Positions 44,789 through 62,611 of a stretch of DNA of 64,000 bases are shown here, piece after piece. The stretch is from an uncultured bacterium (lineage in GTDB: Bacteria; Desulfobacterota_D; UBA1144; Nemesobacterales; UBA2774): contig CAVPJU010000010.1 in the NCBI GenBank assembly GCA_963705505.1, forward strand, positions 768,001 to 832,000, read 5' to 3'. The notes under the pieces were generated by a model. It was not told the origin of the DNA. It was given only the letters and a program-made list of their open reading frames with translations, and did no database searches. Both the position numbers and the translations under genes were made by a program. How positions within the stretch are numbered: position 1 is the stretch's first letter; every line of letters begins with the position of its first letter.

Positions 44789-44819
44789 CACTAAATGAGA
44801 TCGCAAGAGAAGACACAAT

Positions 44820-47186
44820 ATGGAAAATAATAGAGATAATATGATCGGAGATAACAGAGGCAGGAACCTGGTTCCGGAAAATGAGGAGAGAGCACTCCGT
44901 ACGTATCAACATGCCCCTGAGACATTAAGGGCTTACCCGGTCGAGGAAGAAAGCAGCATACACCGCTACGTGGAAGTCGTGCTGAGGCGGAAAAAAATTA
45001 TCATCGCCTTTTTTGCAATCGTGCTGATATCGACCATGATTGCCACATATTTAACAGAGCCGGAATACAAAGCAACAGCCAAATTGGAAATCTCGCTTGA
45101 AAACCCGAAAGTAGTAAACTTTGACCAGGTGGTCGAACTCGAAACCAAATCCCAAGAGTTTTATGAAACGCAGTATCTGCTCCTTAAAAGCCAGACTCTG
45201 GCGAAACAGGTAGTAGAAAAGCTCAACCTGGCCGAGAACCCGGAATTCAGCGGGAAGAACAAGAAGCCGAGCCTGATCTCAAGGGTAACGTCCAGCATCA
45301 AGGGCACGATACGAAGCACCCTAAGCGGAATAAAAAGGATGATCATCAGGCCGCCCGACATCGTACCCTCGAGCGCCGACGCGGCAATTGCCGAGATCAC
45401 CAAACAGGACGGACTCATAAACGGTTTTATCGGCAGGCTTGAAATATCGCCCGTCGGCAACTCCCGACTCGTCGAAGTAAGCTTCGTATCACACGACCGC
45501 AAGCTCGCGGCCGACGCAGTTAATACATTGAGCGATACATTCATAGACTGGATCCTCAACAGAAAACTGGACGCGACTAAACAGGGAAGGGATTTCCTGA
45601 GAAAACAGATAGAGCAGGCCCAGACAAACCTTGAACAGTCCGAAGAGAAGCTCAATGAATTCGCCAAGAGCAACGATATCGTTTCTCTGGACGAAAAGAT
45701 GAACATAACTTACCACACGTTCTCAGAACTGAACGACGCCCTGGCGAAAGCGGAGACATCGAGGCTCGAGAAGGAATCGCTTTACAAGCACGTTCAAAAC
45801 GGAAACATAGGTTCACTGCCTTTGGTGGTAAACGACCCGTATATACAGAACCTGAAGGGAGAGCAGGCTAAAGCAAATTCGGAATACAGCCAGATGAGTG
45901 CGACTTTCAAACCCGGCTACCCAAAGGTGAAGGAGCTCGGAGCCAAGGTAGCTGAATTGCAGAGGAAGATCGACGAGGCAGAAAACAGCGTAGCCGCTTC
46001 GATCAAATCCGATTATGAAGGCGCATTGCAAAAAGAAGAAACTTTAAGAGAAAGCTACCAGAAGCAGAAGACCCTTGCATCCGCACTTAACGATAAATCG
46101 ATCCAGTACAACATCTTAAAGAGGGAAGTGGAATCGAATGAAACCATTTATAACACTCTTTTACAAAGATTAAAAGAAACTGAGGTCTCTTCCGCTATCA
46201 AAGCAAGCAGCATACAGGTCGTAGATTATGCTCAAATACCCTTTATGCCGTTTAAACCCAATGTGACTTTGAATCTGCTTTTTGCCTGCATAATCGGGTT
46301 AGGCGGAGGAATTTTCCTGGCCTTTTTCATGGAGTTCTACGACAATACCATAAAGACACCCGAAGAAGTGAGGGACAAGCTGAAACTCCCGGTCCTCGGA
46401 GGGGTATTCGAATCGCATCAGACGGACGGCTTAGGTTCTCCGGTGGAGAAATCGTTCCTGCTCGACCCGAGATCCCATATTGCCGAATCATTCAGGACGA
46501 TCAGGACCTCCCTGCTCCTTTCGACCCCCGGAAAACCGCCCCGCTCGATTCTTATAACGAGCTGCTTCCCGGCGGAAGGAAAAACTACCGTTTCAATCAA
46601 TCTGGCCTCGTCTTTCGCGCAGGCCGGAAGCAAAGTCCTTCTTCTCGAGGCCGACCTCAGGCGTCCGAGAATCGGAACGGTTCTGGGGAACAACGGGAAC
46701 GGCCTCAGCAGTTACCTGACCGGCAACTCGAATCTCAGCGAGATCATATCTCAGGGGGAGATACCGAACTTATATGTACTCCCCGTCGGTCCGATACCCA
46801 TCAACCCCGCAGAGCTTCTGGGCTCAAATCACATGAAAGAGTTACTTCAGACGCTGAGCCAGGAATACGACTACATTATCGTTGACGGTCCCCCTGCATT
46901 AGGGTTTGTCGATGCCCATATCATATCCAGTCTCGTGGACGGAGTCGCAGTAGTCATAAGGGCCGGAAAAACACCCAGGAATTCGATCAGGGAGCTGATA
47001 GAGAGACTCTGGAGCCTAAAATCCAATTTCCTGGGAGTAATTGTCAACGGCATAGAACTCAATCAGAACAGTTACTACTATAAGTCTTACAATTATTACT
47101 ACGGCGAAGAGGAAGAAAAGAAAAAGCTCACAGCCGCGACGTCCGACGAGAAAAAAAGGCGGGACGATTTGGGTAAATCTTTATAA
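44820..47186 (+). CDS. wzc: Polysaccharide co-polymerase / BY-kinase (Wzc/GumC)
   Basis: Two TMs flanking a coiled-coil, ESFRTIRT, Walker A PAEGKTT, ADLRRP, VDGPP and a C-terminal Tyr cluster SYYYKSYNYYYG. Confidence 0.93.
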   Translation: MENNRDNMIGDNRGRNLVPENEERALRTYQHAPETLRAYPVEEESSIHRYVEVVLRRKKIIIAFFAIVLISTMIATYLTEPEYKATAKLEISLENPKVVNFDQVVELETKSQEFYETQYLLLKSQTLAKQVVEKLNLAENPEFSGKNKKPSLISRVTSSIKGTIRSTLSGIKRMIIRPPDIVPSSADAAIAEITKQDGLINGFIGRLEISPVGNSRLVEVSFVSHDRKLAADAVNTLSDTFIDWILNRKLDATKQGRDFLRKQIEQAQTNLEQSEEKLNEFAKSNDIVSLDEKMNITYHTFSELNDALAKAETSRLEKESLYKHVQNGNIGSLPLVVNDPYIQNLKGEQAKANSEYSQMSATFKPGYPKVKELGAKVAELQRKIDEAENSVAASIKSDYEGALQKEETLRESYQKQKTLASALNDKSIQYNILKREVESNETIYNTLLQRLKETEVSSAIKASSIQVVDYAQIPFMPFKPNVTLNLLFACIIGLGGGIFLAFFMEFYDNTIKTPEEVRDKLKLPVLGGVFESHQTDGLGSPVEKSFLLDPRSHIAESFRTIRTSLLLSTPGKPPRSILITSCFPAEGKTTVSINLASSFAQAGSKVLLLEADLRRPRIGTVLGNNGNGLSSYLTGNSNLSEIISQGEIPNLYVLPVGPIPINPAELLGSNHMKELLQTLSQEYDYIIVDGPPALGFVDAHIISSLVDGVAVVIRAGKTPRNSIRELIERLWSLKSNFLGVIVNGIELNQNSYYYKSYNYYYGEEEEKKKLTAATSDEKKRRDDLGKSL

Positions 47187-47285
47187 GACAATTGAATCTC
47201 GGGGATATTCTCCCTTCGTAACGTATTTTCTTCAGCGATAAATACACTTATCCGTAAATTTTTTCTTAATTCCGCGGCTCGTCAT

Positions 47286-48512
47286 ATGAAATTTACGATA
47301 GGCTCGAGGCTTTCCCTCTATGTATCAATCCTCCTGACGATACTGATATCGTTATTTCTGGCCTGGAATTCGGCGAGGAACTGGCTCGCATACGTTTATG
47401 CGAGCGACCCGCCTCCCGAAGGATTCATGGAAGCTATCTCGATCGAGGGTGGGAATTCGGATTTCTACTTCCTGCTGGGGCAATATTATGATAATTACGA
47501 CATCTCCGCTCCACGAGACCGGGTCTATAAACTGTATAGGAGCGCTCTTGAACTTAACCCGTTAAACTACAATTACTGGTACTACCTGGCCGAATTCCTT
47601 TCGGAGGAAGGCAAACGGGACAAGGCGCTATTTGCCCTTAATCAGGCTACGGAGCTATCCCCCGGCGTCGTTGCACTCAGATGGAGGGCGGGAATGCTTG
47701 CCTCGAGGCTTGGAGACGAGAAATCTCTCGCGGACAACCTCAGCCCCGTAATGGCCTTTGATCCGGAAAGGCGGAAAAAAGCTTTTATAGTCGTTTGGCA
47801 GTCACTCAGGAACGGAGATAAAATCTTAAAAATCATCCCCGAGATCGCACTCCCCGAATATTTGAATTTCCTCATAGAAACGCGGAGAATACCCGAGGCC
47901 CAAAAAGCTTTGGGGAAATTTTCAAATATCAAAGAAATCCCTGAATCTACATTCCTCAGATACGTAAGCATGTTGATCGATGAGAGCATGATTGAGAGCG
48001 CCAAACACACCTGGGTCAGCAAATTCGGAGACTGGGACGGAATCTGGAACGGTAATTTTGATAAGGGTCTCACGAACGGCGGGTTTGATTGGAATTTCAA
48101 CGACGCGCAAGGTGCGAAGATAACAATGGACAATGACACCGGCGGAAAGGGGAACTCAGTCAAGATAGAATTCGACGGAACGAACAACGTGGATTTTTAT
48201 AATTTCCGGCAACACGTTCCCGTTGAGGGAAATACACGCTACGAGCTCAGTGCGTTTATGAAAAGTCAGGATTTGTCGACGAGAAACGGCCTCTTTTGGG
48301 AAGTATATTGCCCCCGGAGTAAAGAATTAGACGCAAAAACCGAAGAAGTTCTGGGAACAACGGATTGGCATCCGGTTACCGTTACATTCCAAACACCCGA
48401 AGACTGCAATTTCCTCAGGATAGTACTGCGCCGTTCCAAAAGCGATGAAATACACGGCAATATTTCCGGGACTGTCTGGATCGATGATATAGCTTTGAAG
48501 AAAATAAACTAG
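47286..48512 (+). CDS. Membrane-anchored TPR protein with C-terminal carbohydrate-binding-like domain
   Basis: N-terminal TM, TPR-like YRSALELNP / A.ELSP segments, and a CBM4/9-like C-terminus (IWNGNF...GGFDW...GTTDW...F.TP...GTVWIDDI). Confidence 0.75.
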   Translation: MKFTIGSRLSLYVSILLTILISLFLAWNSARNWLAYVYASDPPPEGFMEAISIEGGNSDFYFLLGQYYDNYDISAPRDRVYKLYRSALELNPLNYNYWYYLAEFLSEEGKRDKALFALNQATELSPGVVALRWRAGMLASRLGDEKSLADNLSPVMAFDPERRKKAFIVVWQSLRNGDKILKIIPEIALPEYLNFLIETRRIPEAQKALGKFSNIKEIPESTFLRYVSMLIDESMIESAKHTWVSKFGDWDGIWNGNFDKGLTNGGFDWNFNDAQGAKITMDNDTGGKGNSVKIEFDGTNNVDFYNFRQHVPVEGNTRYELSAFMKSQDLSTRNGLFWEVYCPRSKELDAKTEEVLGTTDWHPVTVTFQTPEDCNFLRIVLRRSKSDEIHGNISGTVWIDDIALKKIN

Positions 48513-48528
48513 AACGACGTTATCGTAG

Positions 48529-49911
48529 ATGCCCTTTATAAAAGACAAGCTAATACCTCTGATTATCAACGTCGGGATTGTGCTGATTCTAATGTCCCCT
48601 TTGCCATACGGTAATGTGGAGACATGGTCGGTATCCCTGATTGAGATAATCGCATTCCTGACATTCGGGGTCTGGTCGATCGGGGAAATACTTAAAAGAC
48701 GCATACGTATATTACAGTCGCCCTTATATCTGCCGATAGCACTCTTTTTCATCGTTATTCTGTTTCAGACAGTGGAGCTTCCGGACTCAATTCTCGATTT
48801 CATATCCCCCCATAAGGCGGAGCTGTTTCAAAACAAGAGCGCAGCGCTCCGGAATATATTCGGCGACGGCATAAAACTCTCAAATTCAATCAGTCTCTAC
48901 CCGTTCCTGACAAAAGAAAAATTACTAATATACCTTTCGTACGCCGCATTTTTCCTTATCGTTTCCAACTACATAAAAACAAGCACACAAATAAAGAGAT
49001 TCATCCGTATTGTCTTTACAATATCGATCGTGGAATCACTGATCGGACTTCTCCAGTATATCGCCAGCGGGACTAAGGTGCCGGCGTCAGGCACTTACAT
49101 CAATCCCAACCATTTCGCGGGACTGCTGATCGTAGTTATCCCTTTATTTTTAGGATACATACTATATCGTGGCACCAATAAAAATGCCGGATCAAACCGG
49201 CGGGAAGACAGAATAAAAATTCTATTTTCCGCTCAATTTCTCCTGCTGTTCGCAACGTCCCTTATGGCTATAAGCTTAATAGTCGCACAATCCCGGGGAG
49301 CGATATTCTCGTTTGTGGTCTCAATTATAATCTTTTATATATTGATCTCCCGCAATAAAAAAAGCGGTTCGATAAAATTATTTCTGGGCATATTTTTTGC
49401 GATTGTAATCCTCTACTCGATATGGATAGGATTGGACCCGGTAATTGAAAAATTTTCGGATACGACAAAAGAACTCCCTAATCGTACGTACATATGGAAA
49501 GATTCGCTTAACCTTATAAAAGACTTTCCTATTTTAGGCACAGGTCTAGGGAATTTTAACCTGGCTTACACGCTCTATAAAAAAGAAGCGTTTTGGCCCT
49601 ATGTCTACGACCACGCTCATAATGATTATATCGAACTTGCCGCAGAGACCGGGTTGGTAGGATTCATCTTGGTTCTATGGGCATTGGTAGCGTTTTTTAA
49701 AACCGCGTTGTCTGACGAGAGAAATTTCTCTCCGAACCGGGACCCTCTCAGGTATTATCTCTTCCTGGGGTGCCTGAGCGGGATGCTGGGTATGCTGACT
49801 CACGCTATTACAGAATTCGATTTCCAAATACCGGCTAATACGTACTACTTCGTATTCTTATTGGGACTGTCGAGCAGCATGTCGAATGTGCTAATCGGAA
49901 GGAAGAAATAA
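48529..49911 (+). CDS. O-antigen ligase family (Wzy_C) membrane protein
   Basis: Multi-TM with GTYINPNHFAG, SRGA, R..IW, FP.LGTGLG and HAHNDY motifs. Confidence 0.88.
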   Translation: MPFIKDKLIPLIINVGIVLILMSPLPYGNVETWSVSLIEIIAFLTFGVWSIGEILKRRIRILQSPLYLPIALFFIVILFQTVELPDSILDFISPHKAELFQNKSAALRNIFGDGIKLSNSISLYPFLTKEKLLIYLSYAAFFLIVSNYIKTSTQIKRFIRIVFTISIVESLIGLLQYIASGTKVPASGTYINPNHFAGLLIVVIPLFLGYILYRGTNKNAGSNRREDRIKILFSAQFLLLFATSLMAISLIVAQSRGAIFSFVVSIIIFYILISRNKKSGSIKLFLGIFFAIVILYSIWIGLDPVIEKFSDTTKELPNRTYIWKDSLNLIKDFPILGTGLGNFNLAYTLYKKEAFWPYVYDHAHNDYIELAAETGLVGFILVLWALVAFFKTALSDERNFSPNRDPLRYYLFLGCLSGMLGMLTHAITEFDFQIPANTYYFVFLLGLSSSMSNVLIGRKK

Positions 49912-49973
49912 TTAAAACGATTCGTTTCTGAACCCCTCGCAGCCGTCGGCACCCGGCTCGAACTGACCGTCTT

Positions 49974-51063
49974 CTACGATTTTGTATTTTCGGTCCTTGC
50001 CATCGTTTGCCTGTCCAAACAGTCCTTCAGCGCAAGTTCCGAAATATACCCCATATCGATCAGAATCTGCCCGACTCTTGCCGCCTTGATTTTTTTGACA
50101 TTGTAATGCCTCTTCCAGTTGATCGACCGTGATCACGTTGGCGGCGAGCATTATTTCACCCAGCAAGTAATCATTTTTATTGTTTCTGAACGCCCAATTG
50201 GCGCTTGAATTCACGAATACCTGCAAGTTCAGAAAGTCCTTCAATTTTTGTTCGGTAATATAACCCTTTTCAATCAGAATCTCCCCGACTTTCCCGCCCC
50301 ATTTCTCCTGATGCTTAAGCGCTTCCTCAAGCTGCCCTTCGTTAATAACCCCGGATTCCAGTATGACCTGTCCTATCAGCTTATCTATACGCTTTTCCTT
50401 GCTGTCCCAATGGAGTGTGAACGTATACCATATAGAAGCAAAAATAAGCTTTAAATCGAGCCAGAAGCTCTGATTATAGATATAAATCAAATCATAGCGG
50501 AGCTTGTTCCTGGGATGAGTATTATAATGTCCATGGACCTGGGCAATCCCGGTTAAGCCCGGCTTGACACGGAGCCTGTGATCAAAACCCGGGATCATTT
50601 TCCTGAACTCATTAACCAATTCCGGCCGTTCGGCTCTGGGGCCGACGAAGCTCATGTCGCCCATAAGGATATTGAATAGTTGAGGAAGTTCGTCGAGCTT
50701 CGTTTTTCTGAGGAATTTGCCGACTCTCGTGATCCTGTAATCCTTCTTATAAGCCCAGACAGGACCCGTATTGAGCTCCGCATTCTTGATCATGGAACGA
50801 AACTTGTAAATCTTAAACCTTTTCCCGTTCACACCCAATCTTGTCTGAGAGAAAACTATGGGAACTCCGTCTTCCAGATAAATAGCTACAGCGACCAAAA
50901 TCCAAACAGGCAAAGAAACTATGATACCTATAAGGGAAAACAAAACGTCGAAGGGCCTCTTTAAAATTGGCTCTCTTGTAGGGTAGGAATTATAATCCGT
51001 CAGCGAATACCTTCCGCCCAACTTGTTTATGCCGTTGCCGTAGCTTTTGAACATCTTTTCCAA
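49974..51063 (-). CDS. Priming phosphoglycosyl transferase (Bac_transf, PglC/WcaJ-like) fused to two MshEN-like domains, with a +1 frameshift at ~50076-50079
   Basis: KRPFD, YKFRSM, DELPQL and GDMSFVGPR PGT motifs, then four 24-aa xxGxxLxxxGxIxxxxLxxxLxxQ motifs. The fourth is in the shifted frame, which ends at TAG 49974-49976. The uncorrected ORF runs to 49912. Confidence 0.85.
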
Positions 51064-51541: not shown

Positions 51542-52459
51542 ATGAACCATATCACAAAGAAAGTAAAGAATTACCCGGAGAAAACTGACAAAAAACCCAA
51601 TATGGGTAATCCCGAGCGGGACAATGTCGGTTTTTCGAAAATAGAACCCTTTGCAGTACGCGAGCCCAGCGTAGGGGTTTCATTAAGACTTAGAGAGCTC
51701 CTGGAATATCACGAGCTTATTTATTTCCTTGTTTGGCGGGACCTTAAAGTACGGTACAAGCAAACCGCACTGGGTGTGGCCTGGGTAGCTATTCAACCGT
51801 TAATGACTATGATTGTGTTTACCATATTTTTCGGGAATCTCGCAAAAGTCCCTTCCGACGGACTGCCCTACCCTGTTTTTAGCTTTACGGCCCTATTGCC
51901 GTGGCAGCTCTTTGCTAACGCCTTAAACACCTCAAGCAACAGCCTTGTCAATAACCGCGACTTAATAACTAAACTCTATTTCCCCCGGTTAATTATTCCG
52001 TTGGCGTCGATAATAGCGGGATTTGTAGATTTTTGTATCGCATTCCTGGTGCTTATAGCCATGATAATCTATTATGGAATAGTCCCGACATCAGCCGTTT
52101 TTACGCTTCCCTTATTCATACTGTTGACAATCGCGACGTCAACAGCCGTAAGCCTTTGGCTTTCGGCGCTAAATGTAGAATATAGGGACGTACGTTACAC
52201 AATTCCTTTCCTGACCCAATTCTGGCTCTTCCTCACGCCTATCGCCTATCCAAGCAATTTAGTGCCCGAGAAATGGCGTATCCTATACGGATTAAACCCG
52301 ATGGCGGGCGTTGTCGAGGGTTTCAGGTGGGCTTTACTCGGAAAAACAAACGTTAGCTGGACCATAATTACGGTATCAGTGCTTATAGTTATAATTCTGC
52401 TTGTCGGCGGTTTGGTTTACTTCAGACGCATGGAAAGAACATTCGCGGATATAGTTTAA
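51542..52459 (+). CDS. wzm: ABC-2 polysaccharide exporter permease
   Basis: WRDLKVRYKQT.LG..W..IQPL, KLYFPR, YRDVRY and LNPMAGVVEGFR motifs. Confidence 0.92.
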   Translation: MNHITKKVKNYPEKTDKKPNMGNPERDNVGFSKIEPFAVREPSVGVSLRLRELLEYHELIYFLVWRDLKVRYKQTALGVAWVAIQPLMTMIVFTIFFGNLAKVPSDGLPYPVFSFTALLPWQLFANALNTSSNSLVNNRDLITKLYFPRLIIPLASIIAGFVDFCIAFLVLIAMIIYYGIVPTSAVFTLPLFILLTIATSTAVSLWLSALNVEYRDVRYTIPFLTQFWLFLTPIAYPSNLVPEKWRILYGLNPMAGVVEGFRWALLGKTNVSWTIITVSVLIVIILLVGGLVYFRRMERTFADIV

Positions 52460-52460
52460 T

Positions 52461-53825
52461 ATGAACGGAATCGCAATAAAAGTCAGAGATATAGGAAAAG
52501 AATACAGGATAGGGGAGAGAAATGAATTCAGGACTATCCGGGACAGTATTTCAACCTTCGCCACAAAAATTTTCAAAAGACTAATTTCCGGTATTGACGG
52601 AAAATCCGTAAGGAAAAATAATTCCGCGGGTATCGGAGCTCCGCCTTCCGGTGGAAATTATCAATCCGACGTGTCGCAGATCCCGGGTACAACTGACAAG
52701 ATAAATGATGAAAGAACCGATAATTACATATGGTCACTCAGGAAGGTGTCTTTCGATGTCCGAAACGGGGAAATCGTCGGAATAATCGGCCGCAATGGCG
52801 CGGGAAAGAGCACGCTGCTGAAAATTATAGCGGGTATAACCGAACCTACGGAAGGAAGGATAGATATATACGGCAGAATCGCTTCGCTGCTTGAAGTCGG
52901 AACAGGATTTCACCTCGAGCTAACGGGGAGAGAAAATATCTATTTAAACGGGGCGCTGCTTGGAATGAAAAAACGGGAAATAGACCGTAAATTCGATGAG
53001 ATAGTAGAGTTCTCGGAAGTTCATCAGTTTATCGACACGCCCGTTAAATTTTACTCCTCGGGCATGCGGGTGCGTCTGGGTTTCTCCGTGGCAGCACACC
53101 TCGAGCCCGAGATTCTGCTAATTGACGAAGCTCTTGCGGTAGGAGACGCAGCGTTCCAGAAAAAGTGTTTGGGCAAGCTGAACAATGTAGCTACCTCGGA
53201 AGGAAGGACCGTTATATTCGTCAGCCACGACATGGCGGCCATCCTGTCATTATGCCAGAGATCTATTCTATTGGACAGCGGACGAATGATCGCCGAAGGC
53301 ACCACTCATGAAGTAGTACAGCAGTACATGCAATCAATGAGTTCAACCTATGAAATCCCGCTTGACCAGAGAATGGATCGGACGGGAGACGGCAGTATCC
53401 TCGTTACATCACTTCAAATAGAGAATTCCGAGGGCAGAATACCTATTACACCGAGCTGTAAACTAAAAATCAAAATCGGTTATCGAAGCGAAAACCAAGT
53501 TCGCTTCCCTCAGTTCGTAGTTAATATTAAAGACTTTAGAACACACACGACTATACTCCGCCTGGATAGCGAAATGCTAAATGGTCTGCCTGAAACTCTT
53601 CCTTCCGCGGGAAGTGTGTCGTGCGTGACTGACAAAATATACCTGTCACCGGGACGATGCTACGTGGATGTCGGTATCAGAAAAGGGAAATCAACCGCCG
53701 ATTACATTGAACATGCGGGATACTTCGATATCGAGACAGAAGACCTATACGGATCCGGAAAGATACCGTCACGTGACCAGGCTATATACCTCCTAAAATA
53801 CAGATGGCTGGTTGAAAATGTTTAA
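52461..53825 (+). CDS. wzt: ABC polysaccharide exporter ATPase with C-terminal Wzt-C carbohydrate-binding domain
   Basis: GRNGAGKST, YSSGM.VRL.F and DEALAVGD..FQ.KC motifs, plus a beta-rich C-terminal extension (..LSPGRCYV..). Confidence 0.93.
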   Translation: MNGIAIKVRDIGKEYRIGERNEFRTIRDSISTFATKIFKRLISGIDGKSVRKNNSAGIGAPPSGGNYQSDVSQIPGTTDKINDERTDNYIWSLRKVSFDVRNGEIVGIIGRNGAGKSTLLKIIAGITEPTEGRIDIYGRIASLLEVGTGFHLELTGRENIYLNGALLGMKKREIDRKFDEIVEFSEVHQFIDTPVKFYSSGMRVRLGFSVAAHLEPEILLIDEALAVGDAAFQKKCLGKLNNVATSEGRTVIFVSHDMAAILSLCQRSILLDSGRMIAEGTTHEVVQQYMQSMSSTYEIPLDQRMDRTGDGSILVTSLQIENSEGRIPITPSCKLKIKIGYRSENQVRFPQFVVNIKDFRTHTTILRLDSEMLNGLPETLPSAGSVSCVTDKIYLSPGRCYVDVGIRKGKSTADYIEHAGYFDIETEDLYGSGKIPSRDQAIYLLKYRWLVENV

Positions 53826-53980
53826 ATGATACCATTTAACAAGCGATTGATTGACGTTAACTAGTTGCAACCATTAAAATAAGTCTAAACATACGAGGTG
53901 AATTTAATAAAGGGTATTTACACACTTTTTAAATTATTATAGATTTGCTTTAGCCAAATCAAAAAGTGAGGCATAAGAAT

Positions 53981-54724
53981 ATGAAGCGTGATCAGGTGTT
54001 TATTGAACAAAAGGGAAACATCAATGATTTTGAGTTCAATGACCAGGTGGTGGAAGTCTTCGATGATATGGTAAACCGGAGCGTTCCATTCTATTCGGAG
54101 CAGCAAAGGATGATAAATGAAATCGGGAAAGTTTTTTCAACCAGCGGCACAAATATATATGATCTAGGGTGCGCTACAGCTACCACTCTCATTAATCTTT
54201 GTCAAGACTCCGACCCGTCGATCCGCCTGATAGGATTTGACAATTCCAAGCCAATGATTGAGAGGGCTCAACAGAAAATATCAGAGCATGGATATGAGAA
54301 TCGAATCGAAGTGCGTTATGGTGACTTCAATGGAGATCTCGACTCTATCGATTTGAATAACGCCAGTCTGGTATTGATGTGCTGGACTCTGCAATTTGTG
54401 CGTCCTTTAAGAAGAGACAAACTCATTAAAAAAATTTACGATTCACTCAGTAAAGGCGGTGCGTTGCTGATTACTGAAAAAATACTCACAAACCACTCAC
54501 TCCTAAATCGCTATTTTATAAAATATTATTATGATTATAAGACGCGAAAAGGATATTCAACAGAAGAAATTGTAAATAAGAGGGAGGCACTGGAAAACAT
54601 TTTGGTCCCGTATAGAGTTGAAGAAAATTTCGAATTGTTGAGGCGGAATGGATTCGAAACCGTAGATACTTTTTTTCAATGGTACAATTTTGCCGGATTT
54701 ATTTGCATTAAAGACCCGGGTTAG
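53981..54724 (+). CDS. cmoA: Carboxy-S-adenosyl-L-methionine synthase CmoA homolog
   Basis: RDQVF...DFEFNDQVVEVFDDMVNRSVPFY, YDLGC, DNSKPM, NAS...TLQF, EK, KGYS.EEI..KREALEN and FFQWYNF match the CmoA pattern as I recall it along the whole length. Confidence 0.88.
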   Translation: MKRDQVFIEQKGNINDFEFNDQVVEVFDDMVNRSVPFYSEQQRMINEIGKVFSTSGTNIYDLGCATATTLINLCQDSDPSIRLIGFDNSKPMIERAQQKISEHGYENRIEVRYGDFNGDLDSIDLNNASLVLMCWTLQFVRPLRRDKLIKKIYDSLSKGGALLITEKILTNHSLLNRYFIKYYYDYKTRKGYSTEEIVNKREALENILVPYRVEENFELLRRNGFETVDTFFQWYNFAGFICIKDPG

Positions 54725-54744
54725 TCATTTAAATCTACTTACCA

Positions 54745-55503
54745 ATGATTAACGAAAAACCTTTTAATTTGATTACTGGCAATATGAACATTCATACATT
54801 AATAAAGCGAATAGCCATATATATAAGTGGTTTGATTTGTTACAGATGGGATAGATACTACAAATTACCGAGAAGTCTAAATCCTATAAGTCATAAATTC
54901 GGCTTTGACAGAGGATTGCCCATCGACCGCTATTATACTGAAAAATTTATACGCGCAAACGCCAATGATATACATGGCCGTGTTCTTGAAATTGGAGACG
55001 ACTACTACACTAAAAAGTTCGGAACCGATCTTATTACCAAAAGCGATGTATTGCATGTCGTCGATGGTAATCCTCAGGCAACGATCATCGCTGATTTGAC
55101 TAAGGCTGATAATATTCCTTCCGATACCTTTGACTGTATAATATTCACTCAAACCCTTCAAATGATTTATGATACGCACTCCGCTTTAAAAAACCTCCAC
55201 CGAATATTGAAACCCGGGGGCGTATTGCTAGTTACTACTCACGGAATATGCAAAGTGGGGAGATGGGAGGGTGAGGACGACTGGGGTAAATACTGGCATT
55301 TCACTTCTCAAGCAATAAAAAAGATGTTTGATACACACTTCATGACCGGGAACTATAAAATCGAGGTATATGGAAACGTACTCTCCGCGATCTCTTATCT
55401 GCACGGACTCTCGTCAAATGAACTAACAATAAATGAGTTAGATTATTCGGATCGTGAGTATGAGGTTTTAATTGCCGTAAGAGCAGTAAAACCTGCCGTA
55501 TAA
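54745..55503 (+). CDS. Class I SAM-dependent methyltransferase of the type found in glycan loci
   Basis: FGFDRGLPIDRYY, GRVLEIGD, FDCIIFTQTL, RILKPGGVLL, YWHFT and YGNV motifs. Confidence 0.85.
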   Translation: MINEKPFNLITGNMNIHTLIKRIAIYISGLICYRWDRYYKLPRSLNPISHKFGFDRGLPIDRYYTEKFIRANANDIHGRVLEIGDDYYTKKFGTDLITKSDVLHVVDGNPQATIIADLTKADNIPSDTFDCIIFTQTLQMIYDTHSALKNLHRILKPGGVLLVTTHGICKVGRWEGEDDWGKYWHFTSQAIKKMFDTHFMTGNYKIEVYGNVLSAISYLHGLSSNELTINELDYSDREYEVLIAVRAVKPAV

Positions 55504-55818
55504 ATCAATATTAATAATACGATCGAGTAAAAAATGTTAAAACTAAATAACAAGCATCCGATCACACTTCAAAGGAATCATGATAAATTTTCAAAGAAAA
55601 CTTTTAGAAAGAAATAAATCGCTATTTCGGAGTTAGATTCAGGAATATCTAGACTAATCTCGCTCCAATGCGATTCTTTAAAGGAGTAATAGCAGATAAT
55701 CCCAAATAATATAGAGTTGTAGCCGCTCCGGCCCGAACTATGTAATGTTCGATACTGTGTTATTTTTTTAGCTGGTGTAATATTTATATTCAGACTGTTA
55801 GGAGACATGTAAATACAA

Positions 55819-56631
55819 ATGAGGCGGAATCCGGATTTTTCCATACCCATTTTAATGTATCATCAGGTAAGCGACGATCCTCATCCAAATTTTCTGAAAT
55901 TTACTGTGACGACAAAGGGTTTTGAATCACAGATGAAGACCCTGAAACTCCTCGGCTATAAACCCATAGATTTCAGCCAACTAGCAAGATATAAGGAAGG
56001 AAAGGACCGACTGCCAAAAAGACCCGTCATAATCACATTTGACGACGGGTTTCAGGAAGCGGTGGATAATGCTGTTCCAATATTAAATTCTTGCGGATTC
56101 ACTGCGGTGTTTTATATCACAACCGATTATATCGGGAAAAAAAGCGGCTGGATGATTCCTGAAACATCAATCGAATTCCAGGTTATAGATTGGCCCACCG
56201 TAATTCATTTGGATTCACGCGGATATGAAGTCGGAGCTCACAGTATGACGCATCCTCATATGGATGCCATATCGTTGGAAGCCTGCTCAAAAGAGCTCCG
56301 CGGATCGAAAGAGGCTATTGAAGAAGTTTTGGGCCACGAAGTACGGCACATGGCATACCCTCACGGCTCGTTTAACGACGATGTTTTGAAATTAGCGCAC
56401 GAAACAGGCTATCAAACGTCCTGTTCATGCGAAATCGCCATTGCGCATTCCGGGAATGACCTTCTGGCCCTGCCGAGAGTCAATATCGAGGCCAGTGACT
56501 CCTTGATCGATTTTATATTCAAGCTGCACAAGGCCAGAACACCTGACGAAATTATGCTGATCACGATGAATAGCGTGAAAAGCAAGATCCCGGGAAGATT
56601 GAGGAGATTTATTAAAAAATTTGTTAATTGA
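55819..56631 (+). CDS. Polysaccharide deacetylase (CE4/NodB)
   Basis: PILMYHQV, ITFDDG, GAHSMTH and AYPHG motifs. Confidence 0.92.
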   Translation: MRRNPDFSIPILMYHQVSDDPHPNFLKFTVTTKGFESQMKTLKLLGYKPIDFSQLARYKEGKDRLPKRPVIITFDDGFQEAVDNAVPILNSCGFTAVFYITTDYIGKKSGWMIPETSIEFQVIDWPTVIHLDSRGYEVGAHSMTHPHMDAISLEACSKELRGSKEAIEEVLGHEVRHMAYPHGSFNDDVLKLAHETGYQTSCSCEIAIAHSGNDLLALPRVNIEASDSLIDFIFKLHKARTPDEIMLITMNSVKSKIPGRLRRFIKKFVN

Positions 56632-56657
56632 GGCCGTACGGTAACGACAATATTATT

Positions 56658-57668
56658 ATGATCAAAGTGAGTGTAATAATACCCACATACCAAAGAAAAC
56701 AATCCGTATTACGTCTTCTCGATGCACTTAGTTCGCAAACTTTTCCGTCAAACGAATTCGAGGTCATAATTTCGATCGACGGTTCGACAGACGGTACGAA
56801 GGAAGCGGTCGATAATTACAAAACTCCTTTCGAACTAGGGTCTATTTGGGAAAGTAACGCAGGTAAATCGTCTGCATGCAATAAGGGAATTAAAGACGCC
56901 CGGGGAGAATTGTTAATCATATTGGATGACGACATGGAGCCGTCTCCCGGACTAGTGCAAGCTCATTATACCGCACATCAGGGCCATACGAAAACCGGTG
57001 TAATAGGGGCCGCCCCTATAATAGTAGAAGAAAATTCACCGCTTGTTGTCCGTTATATCGCCGATAAGTTCAATTCTCATATAAAAAAAATATCAGAACC
57101 GGGTTTTAACCTAAGGATTTGGGACTTTTACGGCGGGAATTTCTCTATAAGAAGAAAGCTCATGCTGGACGTCGGTCTATTTGACGAAAACTTTAAAGTT
57201 TACGGGTACGAGGACGTCGAGCTCGTAAACCGGCTGCTAAAGGCGGGTGTAAAAATAATATTCAGCCCGGATGCTTTATGCGTTCAGCATTATGAGGATG
57301 ATCTCAAAGGCCAGGGGTACAAAACAATCAATTCGGGGAACAATGCTGTTCAACTAGTCAGTTCTCAACCGGAGACATTTACTGAACTCAAGCTCACCGA
57401 ATATAACTTAACGGGATGGAAGTGGCGCTCACTTCGTCTAACTTTAATATGGTTCAGTATCTTGATCCCCGTTACTACGGACATAGTAATCTCTTTAATT
57501 AACCTGTTTGAGAAATCAAACCCGAAGATGCATAGGAGGCTTTATTCCTTAGCCATGGATTACTTCTTTTGGCTCGGGGTGTGGACAGCTTTGAGACGTG
57601 ATAAAAACAAGCAACTCCGCTCCAAAATAAAATCCTTCAAGAAACCCCAAAAATGTCCAACACCGTAG
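56658..57668 (+). CDS. Glycosyltransferase family 2
   Basis: VSVIIPTYQR, DGSTD, LDDD and GLFDENF..YG.ED motifs. Confidence 0.92.
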   Translation: MIKVSVIIPTYQRKQSVLRLLDALSSQTFPSNEFEVIISIDGSTDGTKEAVDNYKTPFELGSIWESNAGKSSACNKGIKDARGELLIILDDDMEPSPGLVQAHYTAHQGHTKTGVIGAAPIIVEENSPLVVRYIADKFNSHIKKISEPGFNLRIWDFYGGNFSIRRKLMLDVGLFDENFKVYGYEDVELVNRLLKAGVKIIFSPDALCVQHYEDDLKGQGYKTINSGNNAVQLVSSQPETFTELKLTEYNLTGWKWRSLRLTLIWFSILIPVTTDIVISLINLFEKSNPKMHRRLYSLAMDYFFWLGVWTALRRDKNKQLRSKIKSFKKPQKCPTP

Positions 57669-58789
57669 TTTACTATATAGACAGCAATAATTTCGGCGGC
57701 GCGGAACAGGTGTTACTCAACCTCGTGAGTAAACTCGACCGAAATTCGTGGCGCCCGATCCTCGCATATCACCAGAGCCCCGGCATTTCCTCGTTTGTAG
57801 CAGCCGTAGAAAACCTGGACGTGGATACCATTTCTATGCCTGAGATTCGGAGCTATAAAGATATCAGGAACATTCTACAATTCGCAAAGAAACTGAAAAC
57901 CATACGTCCCGCTATCTTTCATGCAAATCTAAGCTGGCCGCTTTCATGTTCTTATGGCATTATCGCCGCATACCTGGCCGGGGTTAAGACTATTTTAGCC
58001 ACCCAGCACCTCTATTCGGATATGAACTCTCGACGGAGCCAACTAGAACAAAAGCTAATATCCTATTTCGTGGACAACTATATTGCGGTATCATTCGATG
58101 TAGCCAGACAGCTCAAAGAAATAATCACTTCCGAAAATAAAGTAAAAGTTGTGCACAACGGAATCATATTGGGAAATTACAGTCACGTAGCAAATAACAC
58201 ACCCGATAGCGACGTTTACAGCTCCGTGAAGATGAATAGAAATAATTTTCCGATCGTGCTTACCGTAGCACGTCTCGACAAGCAAAAGGGGCACACCTAT
58301 TTACTTCAAGCCGCGAGTGATATCCCGGGGACGCTTTTTGTATTCGCCGGGGACGGTCCCGAGAGGGCGAATCTCGAAAATGAGGCGCGTGAGCTGAGTT
58401 TGACGGACAGAGTCATTTTTTTAGGAAATAGGAACGACATCCCTGCATTGCTGCGCGGATGCGATTTGTTTGTACTCCCGTCTCTCTTCGAGGGATTGCC
58501 CCTTTCCATTATTGAAGCCATGGCGGCAGGCAAACCTGTCATAGCCTCCGATATCAGGGGAGTAGACGAACTGGTAATAAATGGCAAAACAGGATACCTG
58601 GCGCCCCCGGGAGACCCTACTGCTTTAGCGGCCGCGATAAAAACCATCGTGTCGAATCCCCAATTGTCTCAAAAAATCGCATCAGCGGGAAAAACCATGG
58701 TATTCAGTGAATTCTCCGCCGATCAAATGTTAAAAGGCATAACTGAAATATACAATGACAATCTATCCCGCAGAGGATTAATAAATTAA
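57653..58789 (+). CDS. Glycosyltransferase family 4
   Basis: GGAE, VARL..QKG and PS..EGLP.SIIEAMA motifs. Confidence 0.93.
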   Translation: MSNTVVYYIDSNNFGGAEQVLLNLVSKLDRNSWRPILAYHQSPGISSFVAAVENLDVDTISMPEIRSYKDIRNILQFAKKLKTIRPAIFHANLSWPLSCSYGIIAAYLAGVKTILATQHLYSDMNSRRSQLEQKLISYFVDNYIAVSFDVARQLKEIITSENKVKVVHNGIILGNYSHVANNTPDSDVYSSVKMNRNNFPIVLTVARLDKQKGHTYLLQAASDIPGTLFVFAGDGPERANLENEARELSLTDRVIFLGNRNDIPALLRGCDLFVLPSLFEGLPLSIIEAMAAGKPVIASDIRGVDELVINGKTGYLAPPGDPTALAAAIKTIVSNPQLSQKIASAGKTMVFSEFSADQMLKGITEIYNDNLSRRGLIN

Positions 58790-58941
58790 GCAAATGGGAA
58801 ATCACAGAATTACCGAAGAGCCCATTAATATCATCATAAGCTCGGGCTCACCCTGCTTCGTCGATCGATTGGAGCAGGGCAAATCAAACCTTTTTCTTAC
58901 AGTTCTTCGTATGAAATACGAATAAGGGATTGGCGATAACA

Positions 58942-60183
58942 ATGCGCATCCTCTTTATCTCAAGCTACTTCCCCGACGACATACGTACAAAGGCTCACGG
59001 CGTCTATAAGCGGATGGGGATGTTTATAGAGGCTATAAAAGAAATAGCCTCACTGGATATGCTCTTTTATACACGTCAGGATACGCATTACTCGCCCATA
59101 CAGACGTCCGAGACGGAACGTTCGTTAAGCGAACACTGGAAAACGGATATCAGGCTGTCACTCTCGCCCATGGCGGAATACAGGAATCGAACCAAATCCG
59201 AAAAACTGACGTCCTTCGGAAAAGGCATCTTCAGTATTTTCAATCAGCATGGTTACTACGAGCTTAGCGGAGCTGAGCAGGTGCGGGCCCTTGAAGAGTG
59301 CCTCGACAGAAGGCCTGATGCGATCTTCGCACACCGGCTGCCCTCGATGTGCCCTCTGCTGCTCACGAGGAAACCCCTCCCTCCGATTTTTTTCGACTTC
59401 GACGATATTGAGCATATAGTACAGTTAAGACACATCAAACAACTAAAAAGACTCCGGTCAAAGCTCTTATATCTGCTCATTCCTGCTCTGCGTTCGGGTG
59501 AAATGGATGCAGTAAGATTAGCCACAGAGACATACGTTTGCTCCGAAAAAGACCGCGCATACCTGGAAAATAAGTTCAACCAGTCCCGTGTAATTACAGT
59601 CCCGAATACGGTATCGATTCCGGCGTTACAGCCCCCCGCAAATGAAAAGACTCTACTTTTCATCGGTTCTTATTATACGGCCAATCTGCACGCCATAGAT
59701 TTTCTCGTTAAAAAGATCTGGCCTTACGTACATCGGGAAGTCCCGGACGCAAAGCTGATTATTGCCGGAATACCCGCTGATAAGCTCGACATAGATGTCT
59801 CCGGAGCACCGGATATAGAAATCACCGGATTCGTGGACGACCTGGACGGGCTCTACGGAAGATCCCGCATTATTACCACTCCAATATTCGTCGGAGGCGG
59901 CACGCGGATAAAGATCATCGAAGCCGCGGCTTACGGGAAGCCGGTAGTATCTAGCACGATAGGAATGGAAGGGATCGATTTGTCCCCCGGAACAGAAATT
60001 CTGATACATGACAATCCGAAAGAATTTGCAGAAGAGTGTGTAAAATTGCTTCGAGACCCCGAATTGTGTAAGGAAATAGGATCGGCGGCAAGGTCAAAAG
60101 CCAGACTCCTCTATGACAGCAACTCAGTCCTCAAGTTAGTCAGAGACCGTATAATGCATAACATGAAAATATCTGCATCATAA
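58942..60183 (+). CDS. Glycosyltransferase family 4
   Basis: GGGTRIKIIEAAAYGKPVVS.TIG.EG motif. Confidence 0.9.
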   Translation: MRILFISSYFPDDIRTKAHGVYKRMGMFIEAIKEIASLDMLFYTRQDTHYSPIQTSETERSLSEHWKTDIRLSLSPMAEYRNRTKSEKLTSFGKGIFSIFNQHGYYELSGAEQVRALEECLDRRPDAIFAHRLPSMCPLLLTRKPLPPIFFDFDDIEHIVQLRHIKQLKRLRSKLLYLLIPALRSGEMDAVRLATETYVCSEKDRAYLENKFNQSRVITVPNTVSIPALQPPANEKTLLFIGSYYTANLHAIDFLVKKIWPYVHREVPDAKLIIAGIPADKLDIDVSGAPDIEITGFVDDLDGLYGRSRIITTPIFVGGGTRIKIIEAAAYGKPVVSSTIGMEGIDLSPGTEILIHDNPKEFAEECVKLLRDPELCKEIGSAARSKARLLYDSNSVLKLVRDRIMHNMKISAS

Positions 60184-60209
60184 AACATCATTCCGATGTA
60201 TAATTTTAA

Positions 60210-61134
60210 ATGATGTCGCAAGTAAGCGTTATTATTCCAACTTATAACAGAGTGAAATTACTCAATAATTCAGTCGCGAGTGTGCTTTCCCAGACTTATC
60301 GGGATTTTGAGCTGCTGGTGATAGACGACTGTTCCACAGACAATACTTCCGATTTTCTTTCCAATATCGCTGACAAAAGAGTACGCTGCATAAAAAATAC
60401 CTCGAATAAAGGAATTACCGCGACAAGGAATATTGCTCTGTCCAATGCAAACGGGAAATACATCGCATTTCTCGACGACGATGATGAATGGATGCCGGAC
60501 AAGCTGGAAAAACAGATAAATTTAATGGAAAACAGTTCTAAGGGTCTCGGCTGCATATATACCGGATGCAATCTCGTCGACGCGGAAGATAATAGATTCA
60601 ATCAAACAACTGTACCACACTATAGAATAAGGATTTTGAATGAATTACTCTTGGAGAATTTCATTATCACTTCCTCGACTCTTATAAAGGCAGACTGTTT
60701 CGAAACAGTCGGGATGTTCGATGAAAGCATGCCGTTCGCCGAGGATTATGACATGTGGATACGAATAGCTCAGGAGTTCGAATTCGATTTCGTCAGATCA
60801 CCTTTGGTAAATTACCGCATTCATCGAAATTCGATCAGTTTCAACAATAATGCGATAATAATCGGATTAGAGCGATTACTCACAAAACACGAAAAGCTAT
60901 TCCTGAAAAACAAAAAGGCTTATAGTAATCACCTGCTTAGAATCGGTGTCGCATATTGCTATACTGGGAATACCAGAGAAGGCAGGAAAGCGCTTATGAA
61001 GTGCATTGGAATATTATAAATTCGACAAAAGAGTTTATTATAATCTCCTGCTGACAATCCTTGGTGCGGACATCTTCAAAAAGCTAAAGGAGTTGAAAAA
61101 GCAGTATTTCCCTATACGTATAAAAACCGGATAA
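60210..61134 (+). CDS. Glycosyltransferase family 2, with a probable +1 frameshift near 61007-61015
   Basis: VSVIIPTYNR, DDCSTD, FLDDDD and EDYDMW motifs. The ORF stops at 61019, but the next frame continues YKFDKRVYYNLLLTILGADIFKKLKELKKQYFPIRIKTG* to 61134. Confidence 0.8.
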
Positions 61135-61195: not shown

Positions 61196-62611
61196 ATGCA
61201 GAGATTAAACTTCGCCGATATAAATATCCAACACATTCTGATATTCTCCGCAATAATACTCGGTGCGATCCTGGGTATTTATATAGGATATAACGGGGCT
61301 TCCAAGCTAATAATAGGAGGGTTATTAGGGGCTATATTTTTTGTTCTGAGCATTATGAGGCCGTGGATAGCAGTAGCGGCCTTCTTCGCATTAATACCTC
61401 TCGAAAACCTGTTCGTGCTGCAGGGCAGTTTGACGGCGACGCTATCCAAGCTGATGGGCGCTTATTTGATCTTTCTTGTGATCATTACAGGGTCACTAAA
61501 ATATATACACGAAGTTTTTATAAATAAAAAGGTTTTGGTGCTGGTACTATACGGCGCCCTGGGAATAATTTCGGTCGCCGTATCCAAGCACAAAGATTAC
61601 GGCATCCCGCTCTTAATAACTCTATGGCTGTATATATTCCTATATTTCGTTTTTATAATCATGATAAGGGACATTAAGACGTTATATTATGCAACCTGGG
61701 CCTTGCTGGCGGGAGGAATAATTTCAATAATCAGCCCATACTTTTTCGGATTTGGGAGTGTCGGGGGCTACGAATTAAAACGCTATGGAGGGCTATGGGG
61801 AGACCAGAACGAGTTCGCAGCTCTGCTGCTCGTATTGATTCCACTTTCCATCATGAACTTCTTTATGGACCAGAAGTTAATTTACAAAGTAATCTCGGCA
61901 ATTACTTCACTCATACTTCTGACTGGTCTAATACTAACGTATTCGAGGGGTGGATTCATATCTCTGTTCCTCATGCTTGTACTAGCAATGTTTAAAATAG
62001 TAAGTGGGAAAAACAGGACTAAGATTCTTGCAATATCCGTTCCCTGTATCATCGTAGCTTTTATAATTTTTTATTACGCCTTTGCCGATCAGTTCCTTGC
62101 CAGAATGGAAACGCTGAGTGTATTGTCAAGCAGTGAATCGGCACAAACGGAAGGCTCGCTGAAGCAGAGATATTTCTACTACTTCCAATTAGCCCCGAAA
62201 CTCTTTATGCAGCACCCTGTTTTCGGAGTCGGATTTAGGGAGTTCGTGTTTAGCAACCCTTACGGGCAGGTAACACATAATACTTATTTAGAGGTATTGG
62301 TAGGAATGGGTGTAATAGGATTCATACCTTTCGTAGCCATATTATTTCTTTCATGGAAAGACCTGAGAAGCGCTCAGAAGTTCAATAACAACAATCCGTT
62401 TGTCCATTCTTATGCAGTTGCGCTTGAGATAGGATTCCTGGGTTATCTTTTCGCCAGTATGTTCCTTACGCTGGACTTAAATAAGGTGCTTTGGATGTCG
62501 ATCGCTCTTACATCAGTAGTTCTTAATTTAAGCAGGATTTATAGTGGGACTCAGACTACGAATAAAGTCACTAATCGCAACTACAAGACATTAGGAGTAA
62601 CATACTACTAG
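61196..62611 (+). CDS. O-antigen ligase/polymerase (Wzy-like) membrane protein
   Basis: Multi-TM with G..GDQNEFA, TYSRGG, HPVFGVG and THNTYL motifs. Confidence 0.85.
   Translation: MQRLNFADINIQHILIFSAIILGAILGIYIGYNGASKLIIGGLLGAIFFVLSIMRPWIAVAAFFALIPLENLFVLQGSLTATLSKLMGAYLIFLVIITGSLKYIHEVFINKKVLVLVLYGALGIISVAVSKHKDYGIPLLITLWLYIFLYFVFIIMIRDIKTLYYATWALLAGGIISIISPYFFGFGSVGGYELKRYGGLWGDQNEFAALLLVLIPLSIMNFFMDQKLIYKVISAITSLILLTGLILTYSRGGFISLFLMLVLAMFKIVSGKNRTKILAISVPCIIVAFIIFYYAFADQFLARMETLSVLSSSESAQTEGSLKQRYFYYFQLAPKLFMQHPVFGVGFREFVFSNPYGQVTHNTYLEVLVGMGVIGFIPFVAILFLSWKDLRSAQKFNNNNPFVHSYAVALEIGFLGYLFASMFLTLDLNKVLWMSIALTSVVLNLSRIYSGTQTTNKVTNRNYKTLGVTYY

Follow-up and report, generated by a model that had tools for sequence, protein, structure and literature searches.

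A 64,000-nucleotide stretch of contig CAVPJU010000010.1 from an uncultured bacterium of the order Nemesobacterales (the window, to which all plain positions refer) carries a polysaccharide export locus in which cmoA, encoding a probable carboxy-S-adenosylmethionine (Cx-SAM) synthase (P0001; 53966..54724), is followed by a gene for a class I methyltransferase-fold protein, P0002 (also termed MT2; 54745..55503), which has generic methyltransferase Pfam matches and is a candidate carboxymethyltransferase; these genes and the others from wzm to the last glycosyltransferase gene lie on the + strand. We propose, with a confidence that lies midway between acceptance and rejection, that CmoA makes Cx-SAM and that P0002 uses it to carboxymethylate a glycan exported by an ABC transporter, possibly on an amine freed by a deacetylase encoded next door. 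As read from the sequences, CmoA would convert S-adenosylmethionine (SAM) and prephenate to Cx-SAM, a role suggested by its family membership; P0002, predicted to have branched off, with a specialised role, from a family of glycan methyltransferases, would then act in the cytoplasm, moving the carboxymethyl group onto a sugar of the lipid-linked glycan, and the Wzm-Wzt transporter would export the chain after this step, the new group serving either as a chain-end cap or as a decoration of the repeat units. The original prediction for this DNA described a full-length CmoA-like open reading frame (ORF) that lies behind wzm-wzt, 20 bp ahead of a methyltransferase gene, with deacetylase and glycosyltransferase genes downstream, and the locus is laid out exactly so; the motifs KREALEN, MCWTLQF and FGFDRGLPIDRYY are likewise present in the translations.

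The assignment of P0001 to the CmoA family is solid by every comparison made. The protein scores 233.6 bits against TIGR00740 (233.2 bits in the genome search), over the equivalog cut-off of 193.3 bits, aligns end to end with the CmoA structures 1im8 (E 1.2e-46) and 4gek (E 6.5e-44), and is ~38–40% identical to E. coli CmoA as judged by eye from the alignment. Its true start is probably ATG 53981 rather than GTG 53966, because a matching MK.D start is found in two of three orthologues and the ATG is preceded by a GAGG at a distance of 9 nt. According to the accessible text of PMC4482062, Arg199 is the sole residue of E. coli CmoA that contacts the Cx-SAM carboxylate, and Phe133 gives a backbone carbonyl. 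The equivalent of Arg199 in the 4gek alignment is Arg206 of P0001, within KREALEN. CmoA relatives came from a search that took one genome per species and gave at least 444, the best 80 of which were kept; the resulting tree has 80 rows in three groups, with four of 84 loci left out (a pseudogene of genome G052 and three with a short ORF call or a stop). Arg206 is invariant in 80/80 of these relatives, and the same holds, across all three groups, for Lys205, Glu210, Asn211, Gln143, Phe144, Lys172, Tyr188, Lys192, Tyr197, Asn241 and Phe242. Moreover, a chorismate mutase is encoded in the genome, so that prephenate should be available.

In P0001, Cys139-Trp140 replaces the Asn-Phe pair of E. coli LNFTLQF, and the original prediction had been concerned that the loss of Asn might change the product. 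Positions 139–140 vary by CmoA group, as Cys-Trp, Leu/Cys-Leu or Asn-Tyr: Cys139 is found in 26/30 and Trp140 in 30/30 rows of the window's clade, versus Asn-Tyr in 11/14 rows of the group linked to CmoB. This difference, together with the observation that several methyltransferases are common in glycan loci, leaves room for an alternative in which the CmoA proteins of this clade have lost Cx-SAM synthesis and either make another SAM derivative or are themselves glycan methyltransferases. We regard that alternative as improbable, given that Arg206 and the eleven other positions do not vary across the groups, that the score exceeds a curated equivalog cut-off, that the Phe133 contact of the E. 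coli enzyme runs through the backbone (PMC4482062), and that the distant homologues TglE, MccS and phage CmoA are all described as making Cx-SAM in the available portions of PMC10491745 and PMC12783734. The concern over the Asn-to-Cys change therefore loses weight, Cys-Trp being a trait of the whole clade. Among ten other genomes with a window-type CmoA, eight lack CmoB and two, both Gammaproteobacteria, have CmoB and no other CmoA; in the latter pair, reliance on the window-type enzyme as the only CmoA suggests that it does make Cx-SAM.

The established consumer of Cx-SAM, CmoB, was not found in this lineage. In the genome that holds the window (93.6% complete), the best match to the CmoB profile TIGR00452 reaches 22.1 bits versus a cut-off of 275, and a tblastn search with a true CmoB from a Desulfobulbus-type locus returned nothing; CmoB exceeds the cut-off in 0/61 genomes of the order, this genome included. 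No cmoB or other transfer RNA (tRNA)-modification family was matched at E<=1e-30 among the other 42 ORFs of the window, nor among the 16 ORFs of the locus, so that the absence claimed for the window holds there; that of cmoB extends, by profile search and tblastn, to the rest of the genome. P0001 is also the only CmoA in its genome over the TIGR00740 cut-off, and no second cmoA was found elsewhere; one candidate, C10:476323-476925, was set aside as a generic methyltransferase at 65.7 bits and 24% identity. Intact window-type CmoA occurs in 4/61 genomes of the order (G000, G003, G048 and G044, at >=57% identity), including two of the ten genomes of the genus, one of which, G003, retains the cmoA-P0002 pair at 72% and 58% identity; the next best match in the order, apart from the G052 pseudogene, is 30% identical. 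Judged by this gene content, cmoA is an accessory gene and not part of the translation apparatus of the lineage. The G052 copy (L028:9676-10425, on G052:C86) is a decayed window-type cmoA in three pieces, with three stops (two TGA and one TAA), and an intact FkbM methyltransferase gene adjoins it.

The wider CmoA family divides by the kind of partner encoded beside it, as seen when neighbouring ORFs were called and clustered and the clusters named with Pfam and NCBIfam. In the CmoB-linked group (14 rows), a true cmoB lies directly downstream in three (TIGR00452, 365.8 bits). The second group (36 rows) is a membrane-partner clade, in which cmoA is followed by a ~245-residue membrane protein of PEMT/ICMT type in 31 rows, as it also is in one row of the CmoB-linked group. 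The window's clade (30 rows) has an SH-aLRT support of 100, covers at least eight phyla and stands apart from the CmoB-linked rows; its members come from Thermodesulfobacteriota, Acidobacteriota, Methylomirabilota, Myxococcota, Pseudomonadota, Omnitrophota, Gemmatimonadota and Binatota, and from a metagenome-assembled genome (MAG) labelled Spirochaetia. In 25/32 loci of this clade, cmoA has a methyltransferase-fold gene or domain no more than two genes away, namely a P0002-like gene in seven, a member of a TIGR04325-like family (MT3) in 13, an FkbM family gene in three more, another methyltransferase in one, and a nonribosomal peptide synthetase (NRPS) with a methyltransferase domain in one. 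Glycosyltransferase, deacetylase, nucleotidyl-sugar or exosortase genes are found within five genes of cmoA in 19/32. The pairing of cmoA with a methyltransferase gene recurs across phyla; most of the P0002 family occurs away from cmoA. A single ancestral Cx-SAM transferase was considered for these partners and rejected, for hhalign comparisons of the P0002-like, TIGR04325-like and FkbM proteins gave probabilities of 0.1–3%, with no relation beyond the fold.

Several loci of the wider family deserve separate mention. The membrane PEMT/ICMT-type methyltransferase stands beside cmoA in 34/84 loci (the window among the 84), downstream in 33; these loci, L058–L095 (e.g., L063:309-1801), come from Rhizobium, Niastella, Alphaproteobacteria, Omnitrophota and Planctomycetota. 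The similarity of the partner to LmtA, which methylates lipid A (TIGR04571, 103 bits, short of the cut-off at 325), suggests a separate, lipid-directed use of Cx-SAM. In a gammaproteobacterial MAG (L044:7001-12304), cmoA is followed directly by a 1509-residue NRPS module with condensation, adenylation, methyltransferase and peptidyl carrier protein domains, CmoB is encoded 83 kb away and there is no other CmoA; a carboxymethylated peptide is a possible product. At L039:4709-6934, a single 741-residue ORF directly upstream of cmoA joins a carbohydrate esterase family 4 (CE4) deacetylase to a TIGR04325-like methyltransferase; the two are separate ORFs in L038, which is 99% identical, and in the related L041, so the joined frame may reflect either a true fusion or an artefact of a frameshift, and little weight is given to it.

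The P0002 family itself is large, with 4510 proteins at E<=1e-5, and the members linked to cmoA form a lineage of their own. In a tree of 60 distinct members, all 13 cmoA-linked relatives of P0002 fall in one 17-row clade that spans phyla (UFBoot 94, SH-aLRT 99), and the cmoA label requires four changes on the tree versus a mean of 11.9 after shuffling, with 0/500 shuffles giving so few; copies linked to wzt in relatives that lack cmoA group in another clade (99/96). The linked clade has four further rows: insertion sequence (IS) transposases flank two of them, a divergent CmoA-like gene comes after a third, and the last lacks a cmoA within 4 kb. At the third of these loci (L154:545-1985), the CmoA-like gene comes after the methyltransferase gene rather than before it, scores 181 bits to the CmoA profile, and has its carboxylate-binding Arg shifted by one position. 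A comparison of the 17 clade rows with 41 others gives a residue signature: Met at position 140 in 16/17 (0/41 in the others, which have Phe or Leu), His at 166 in 14/17 (2/41, with Pro instead), Lys or Arg at 170 in 17/17 (4/41, mostly Gln), Arg at 174 in 15/17 (2/41) and Gln at 189 in 15/17 (1/41). At position 176, a one-residue insertion is present in 16/17, and the others show a gap in 34/41 and a residue in 7/41 (Gly in one). The window's P0002 carries Met140, His166 and Lys170.

Alignments to phosphoethanolamine methyltransferases (PMT), weak but consistent (E 2.5e-4 to 5e-3), place positions 139/140 of P0002 at the catalytic His and 166 at an acceptor-site Tyr, residues whose roles are given in the accessible part of PMC6661969; similarly, in the register of the FD motif, Gln139 of P0002 matches Tyr200 of CmoB. 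The changes in the clade would therefore cluster in two loops on either side of the group being transferred. In the cases described in the available text of PMC12783734 and PMC7496830, the switch from SAM to Cx-SAM is marked by the change of a neutral residue to a cationic one, namely Asn to Arg350 in CmoX and the engineered M.MpeI N374K and CNMT Y81R. The change from Gln to Lys/Arg at position 170 is of the kind known in Cx-SAM users, and a carboxylate-binding role for Lys170 may be presumed from this resemblance.

Comparison with published Cx-SAM pathways shows how far the precedent reaches. The E. coli CmoA-CmoB system (4gek, 4qnu), which makes cmo5U34 in tRNA, shares with the locus the same first-enzyme family, with the equivalent of Arg199 kept, and the adjacency of a Cx-SAM synthase to a methyltransferase-fold transferase. 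It differs in that P0002 has no match to TIGR00452 at E<=0.001 (a profile comparison of the P0002 family with CmoB aligns ~55 residues of shared fold) and lacks the N-terminal CmoB domain that bears Lys91, and in its setting, which here is a glycan export locus in a genome and order where CmoB does not exceed the cut-off. In the phage CmoA-CmoX pathway to 5-carboxymethylcytosine DNA, as far as the consulted text of PMC12783734 describes it, CmoA is likewise diverted from tRNA, its partner being a methyltransferase homologue of ordinary appearance, and the neutral Asn that became an Arg binding the Cx-SAM carboxylate has its parallel in the Gln-to-Lys/Arg170 change of the P0002 clade; however, CmoX is a relative of the C5-methyltransferase fold acting on C5 of DNA cytosine, whereas the acceptor here is presumably a sugar and the role of Lys170 is deduced by analogy. 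Similarly, the CmoA homologues TglE (3-thiaglutamate) and MccS (Bacillus microcin C) feed Cx-SAM to a dedicated transferase within a specialised cluster, but with a peptide and a nucleotide antibiotic as acceptors and not a polysaccharide (accessible text of PMC10491745).

A number of observations weigh against the proposed carboxymethylation of a glycan by P0002. In the order (61 genomes), the P0002 family occurs at 17 places in 12 genomes, of which only two places adjoin cmoA, so that 10/12 genomes hold the family without an adjacent cmoA; a metagenome scan with P0002 alone found a window-type CmoA directly upstream in 8/54 loci, and no upstream cmoA was found in 39/64 family members examined. 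P0002 could thus be a plain SAM methyltransferase. The support for the cmoA-linked clade is slightly below the strict threshold, two of its members (L150 and L129) have no nearby cmoA, and some signature is to be expected for any clade when residues and tree come from the same alignment. The window's P0002 is off consensus at two signature positions, Trp174 (not Arg) and Lys182 (not Glu), and the loop of residue 170 is the lowest-confidence part of the folded core in the structural model, with a predicted local distance difference test score (pLDDT) of 70–75. The methyltransferase partners of window-clade CmoA span at least three families with no mutual similarity beyond the fold (hhalign <=3%), which would require the cofactor to have been switched several times independently. 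The genome encodes a TrhO-like tRNA hydroxylase, so that 5-hydroxyuridine (ho5U) may be made and used in tRNA through some enzyme other than CmoB; a U32 peptidase was not found in the genome. Finally, in E. coli, Cx-SAM is ~400-fold rarer than SAM (accessible text of PMC4482062), and P0002 would need real selectivity.

Some of these points favour an alternative that we consider unlikely, in which P0002 is an ordinary SAM-dependent sugar methyltransferase, the Cx-SAM made by CmoA serves tRNA through a non-CmoB transferase or serves another enzyme of the locus, and the adjacency of the genes reflects co-transfer. The cmoA-less majority of P0002 relatives and the TrhO-like gene would fit it, as would the two genomes in which window-type CmoA lies far from a true CmoB and may be used for tRNA, and the loci L054, L055 and L057, in which cmoA has no methyltransferase neighbour. 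Co-transfer alone, however, would not lead one to expect 13/13 cmoA-linked relatives in a single cross-phylum clade with so few label changes, and the lack of CmoB over the cut-off throughout the order speaks against the known tRNA route. Moreover, P0002 is the only MT2 homologue in its genome, and a search there for the other CmoA-partner types (MT3, FkbM) yielded none, with only a weak generic ICMT-like match. The 20-bp spacing and the lack of a terminator suggest that cmoA and P0002 share one transcript: a scan of 53700-56000 found no terminators, and its nine promoter-like sites, versus 8.2 expected, are at chance level. On balance, the earlier idea that the neighbouring methyltransferase is a carboxymethyltransferase of a glycan keeps its footing in the absence of CmoB from the order, in the recurrence of the pair across phyla and in a distinct clade with a cationic change, and is weakened by a family that is mostly found without CmoA.

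For the carboxymethylation of a glycan by P0002, the acceptor side of the proposal draws on the neighbours of the family and not on the fold. The AlphaFold2 model of P0002 (pLDDT 85.7) has a class I fold, and a Foldseek search against the PDB returned generic class I methyltransferases only (BioC, PMT and METTL6; TM 0.41–0.51), with no clue to the acceptor. In relatives, ORFs of 536–556 residues (L114:493-2130, L115:463-2133, L126:481-2145 and L123:1495-3105) join an N-terminal family 2 glycosyltransferase (GT2) to a C-terminal methyltransferase; in L114, L115 and L126, Pfam recognises the two domains, and the methyltransferase of L123 was recognised by tblastn only, at 40% identity. Such fusions show the P0002 family to act on glycans, and the fused protein could be a chain-terminating module. 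Frames of 540–560 residues in relatives had been considered as methyltransferase-deacetylase fusions; ORF calling and Pfam show them to be GT2-methyltransferase fusions with a separate deacetylase. A CE4 deacetylase gene directly follows the fusion in three of the four loci, and wzt was seen upstream in one (L115); an unfused copy of the P0002 family comes directly after wzt in L117–L121 and L169.

The deacetylase accompanies both the P0002 family, with or without cmoA, and the MT3 family; it lies directly downstream in 19/39 cmoA-less members of the P0002 family, and in several relatives the methyltransferase and deacetylase genes are 9–15 bp apart or overlap by 4 bp. In the window, the CE4 polysaccharide deacetylase P0122 (55819..56631; Polysacc_deac_1, 96.8 bits) has intact TFDD and HSMTH motifs, which correspond to the CE4 metal motifs, Asp-Asp and His-x3-His; a signal peptide is not evident, and the protein is 48–57% identical to the deacetylases downstream of MT2 in relatives. 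It may free the amine of an N-acetyl amino sugar as the acceptor, which would yield an N-carboxymethyl sugar, the alternative being an O-carboxymethyl ether. The original prediction named the O-carboxymethyl group; as written this is not supported, and with a conserved CE4 gene next door an N-carboxymethyl amino sugar is no less likely. In rhizobia, the CE4 deacetylase NodB frees the amine of a terminal N-acetylglucosamine and the class I methyltransferase NodS alkylates it. The pairing of deacetylase and P0002 follows the same gene logic, by analogy only, but P0002 has no NodS Pfam match (E<=0.001) and the deacetylase reaches 36 bits against NodB, with a cut-off of 240.

In E. coli O8/O9a, WbdD-type chain terminators are read by the C-terminal domain of Wzt. 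The window resembles these systems in that a methyltransferase is encoded beside wzm-wzt and that Wzt (52461..53825; ABC_tran, 81 bits) has a C-terminal extension, and differs in that no similarity of P0002 to WbdD was found, no search aimed at it having been made, and in the score of the extension: residues 306–426 match Pfam Wzt_C at 28.9 bits, slightly under the gathering score of 30.4. The extension proposed earlier is thus likely, with a match that stays just below threshold. The ATPase part of Wzt is 79–87% identical to its counterparts in six cmoA-less loci (five of relatives and one from a metagenome), and the C-terminal part only 49–63% identical to the same six and to a seventh relative locus, a divergence that would fit a changed ligand. 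That Wzt reads a carboxymethyl cap is speculation. A still bolder version, a long shot in our estimate, would have a glycine-like, zwitterionic N-carboxymethyl amino sugar on ABC-exported glycans in many phyla, for which CE4 frees the amine, a methyltransferase offshoot switched from SAM to Cx-SAM by the Gln-to-Lys/Arg170 change adds the group, and, in the present locus, the diverged Wzt C-terminal domain reads it as the chain-end export signal.

The cmoA-P0002 pair appears to have arrived as a unit. Its GC content (cmoA 0.393, P0002 0.387) is below that of wzt (0.46) and the deacetylase (0.44), and it is bordered by AT-rich spacers of 140 bp on the left (53826..53965, GC 0.27) and 315 bp on the right (55504..55818, GC 0.31), neither assigned to a strand. 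In close relatives, wzm-wzt, a GT2-methyltransferase fusion and the deacetylase occur with no cmoA, and P0002 belongs to the cross-phylum cmoA-linked clade, apart from the copies of these relatives. These comparisons are most simply read as the replacement of a resident methyltransferase gene, situated between wzt and the deacetylase gene, by a foreign cmoA-P0002 cassette. The low GC and AT-rich borders, the patchy distribution with its decayed G052 copy, and the IS transposases around two linked-clade members could also be taken as marks of a passenger cassette, acquired recently and playing no part in the host glycan. We find this very unlikely, as both ORFs are intact and share the orientation of the operon, the cassette sits exactly where relatives have a methyltransferase gene, a step that the locus would otherwise lack, and the same-genus genome G003 has kept the pair.

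The remaining genes complete an export locus of mixed character. The ABC-2 permease gene wzm (51542..52459; ABC2_membrane, 76.8 bits) is 72% identical to that of the metagenome locus L169, in which wzm, wzt and MT2 follow one another. Downstream of the deacetylase, four glycosyltransferase genes in the order GT2, GT4, GT4, GT2 (56628..61019; Pfam/NCBIfam matches) presumably build the chain. Upstream of wzm lie Wza-, Wzc- and Wzy-like genes and a phosphoglycosyl transferase gene; at 43787-51063 and 61196-62611, the window thus holds genes of Wza/Wzc/Wzy type (Wzx/Wzy-pathway, PEP-CTERM-like) alongside the wzm-wzt exporter and so encodes two routes of export next to each other. The phosphoglycosyl transferase (49912-51063, - strand; Bac_transf, 219.9 bits) has a C-terminal MshE-related motif that binds cyclic di-GMP (NF053729, 84.3 bits versus a cut-off of 38), which suggests control of chain initiation by cyclic di-GMP through this domain. 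A TPR-repeat protein (47286-48512), encoded between the Wzc-like and Wzy-like genes, gives a weak CBM_4_9 match of 21.6 bits, under the cut-off.

Use of Cx-SAM outside tRNA is already known, and the suggestion that this locus would be the first such case does not hold: TglE in 3-thiaglutamate synthesis, MccS in microcin C and the phage CmoA-CmoX pair have been published (accessible text of PMC10491745 and PMC12783734). A glycan acceptor for Cx-SAM, or a partner of P0002 type, was not found in the literature searched, which was judged mostly by title and abstract and covered few subscription journals; within that literature, the sugar acceptor and the P0002 partner family are new. The CmoA named in an exopolysaccharide paper is an unrelated Paenibacillus motility protein, according to the available part of PMC6976573. 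If the proposal is true, carbohydrates would join the four published classes of Cx-SAM acceptor (tRNA, peptide, microcin C and phage DNA), and a carboxymethyl substituent of +58 Da would be predicted on the glycan, of which the literature searched gave no description. Such a group would alter the surface charge of the bacterium and hence its recognition by phages, antibodies and lectins. Moreover, the contrast between family members with cmoA and those without it would amount to a natural experiment in the retuning of a methyltransferase from SAM to Cx-SAM, directly useful for enzyme engineering.

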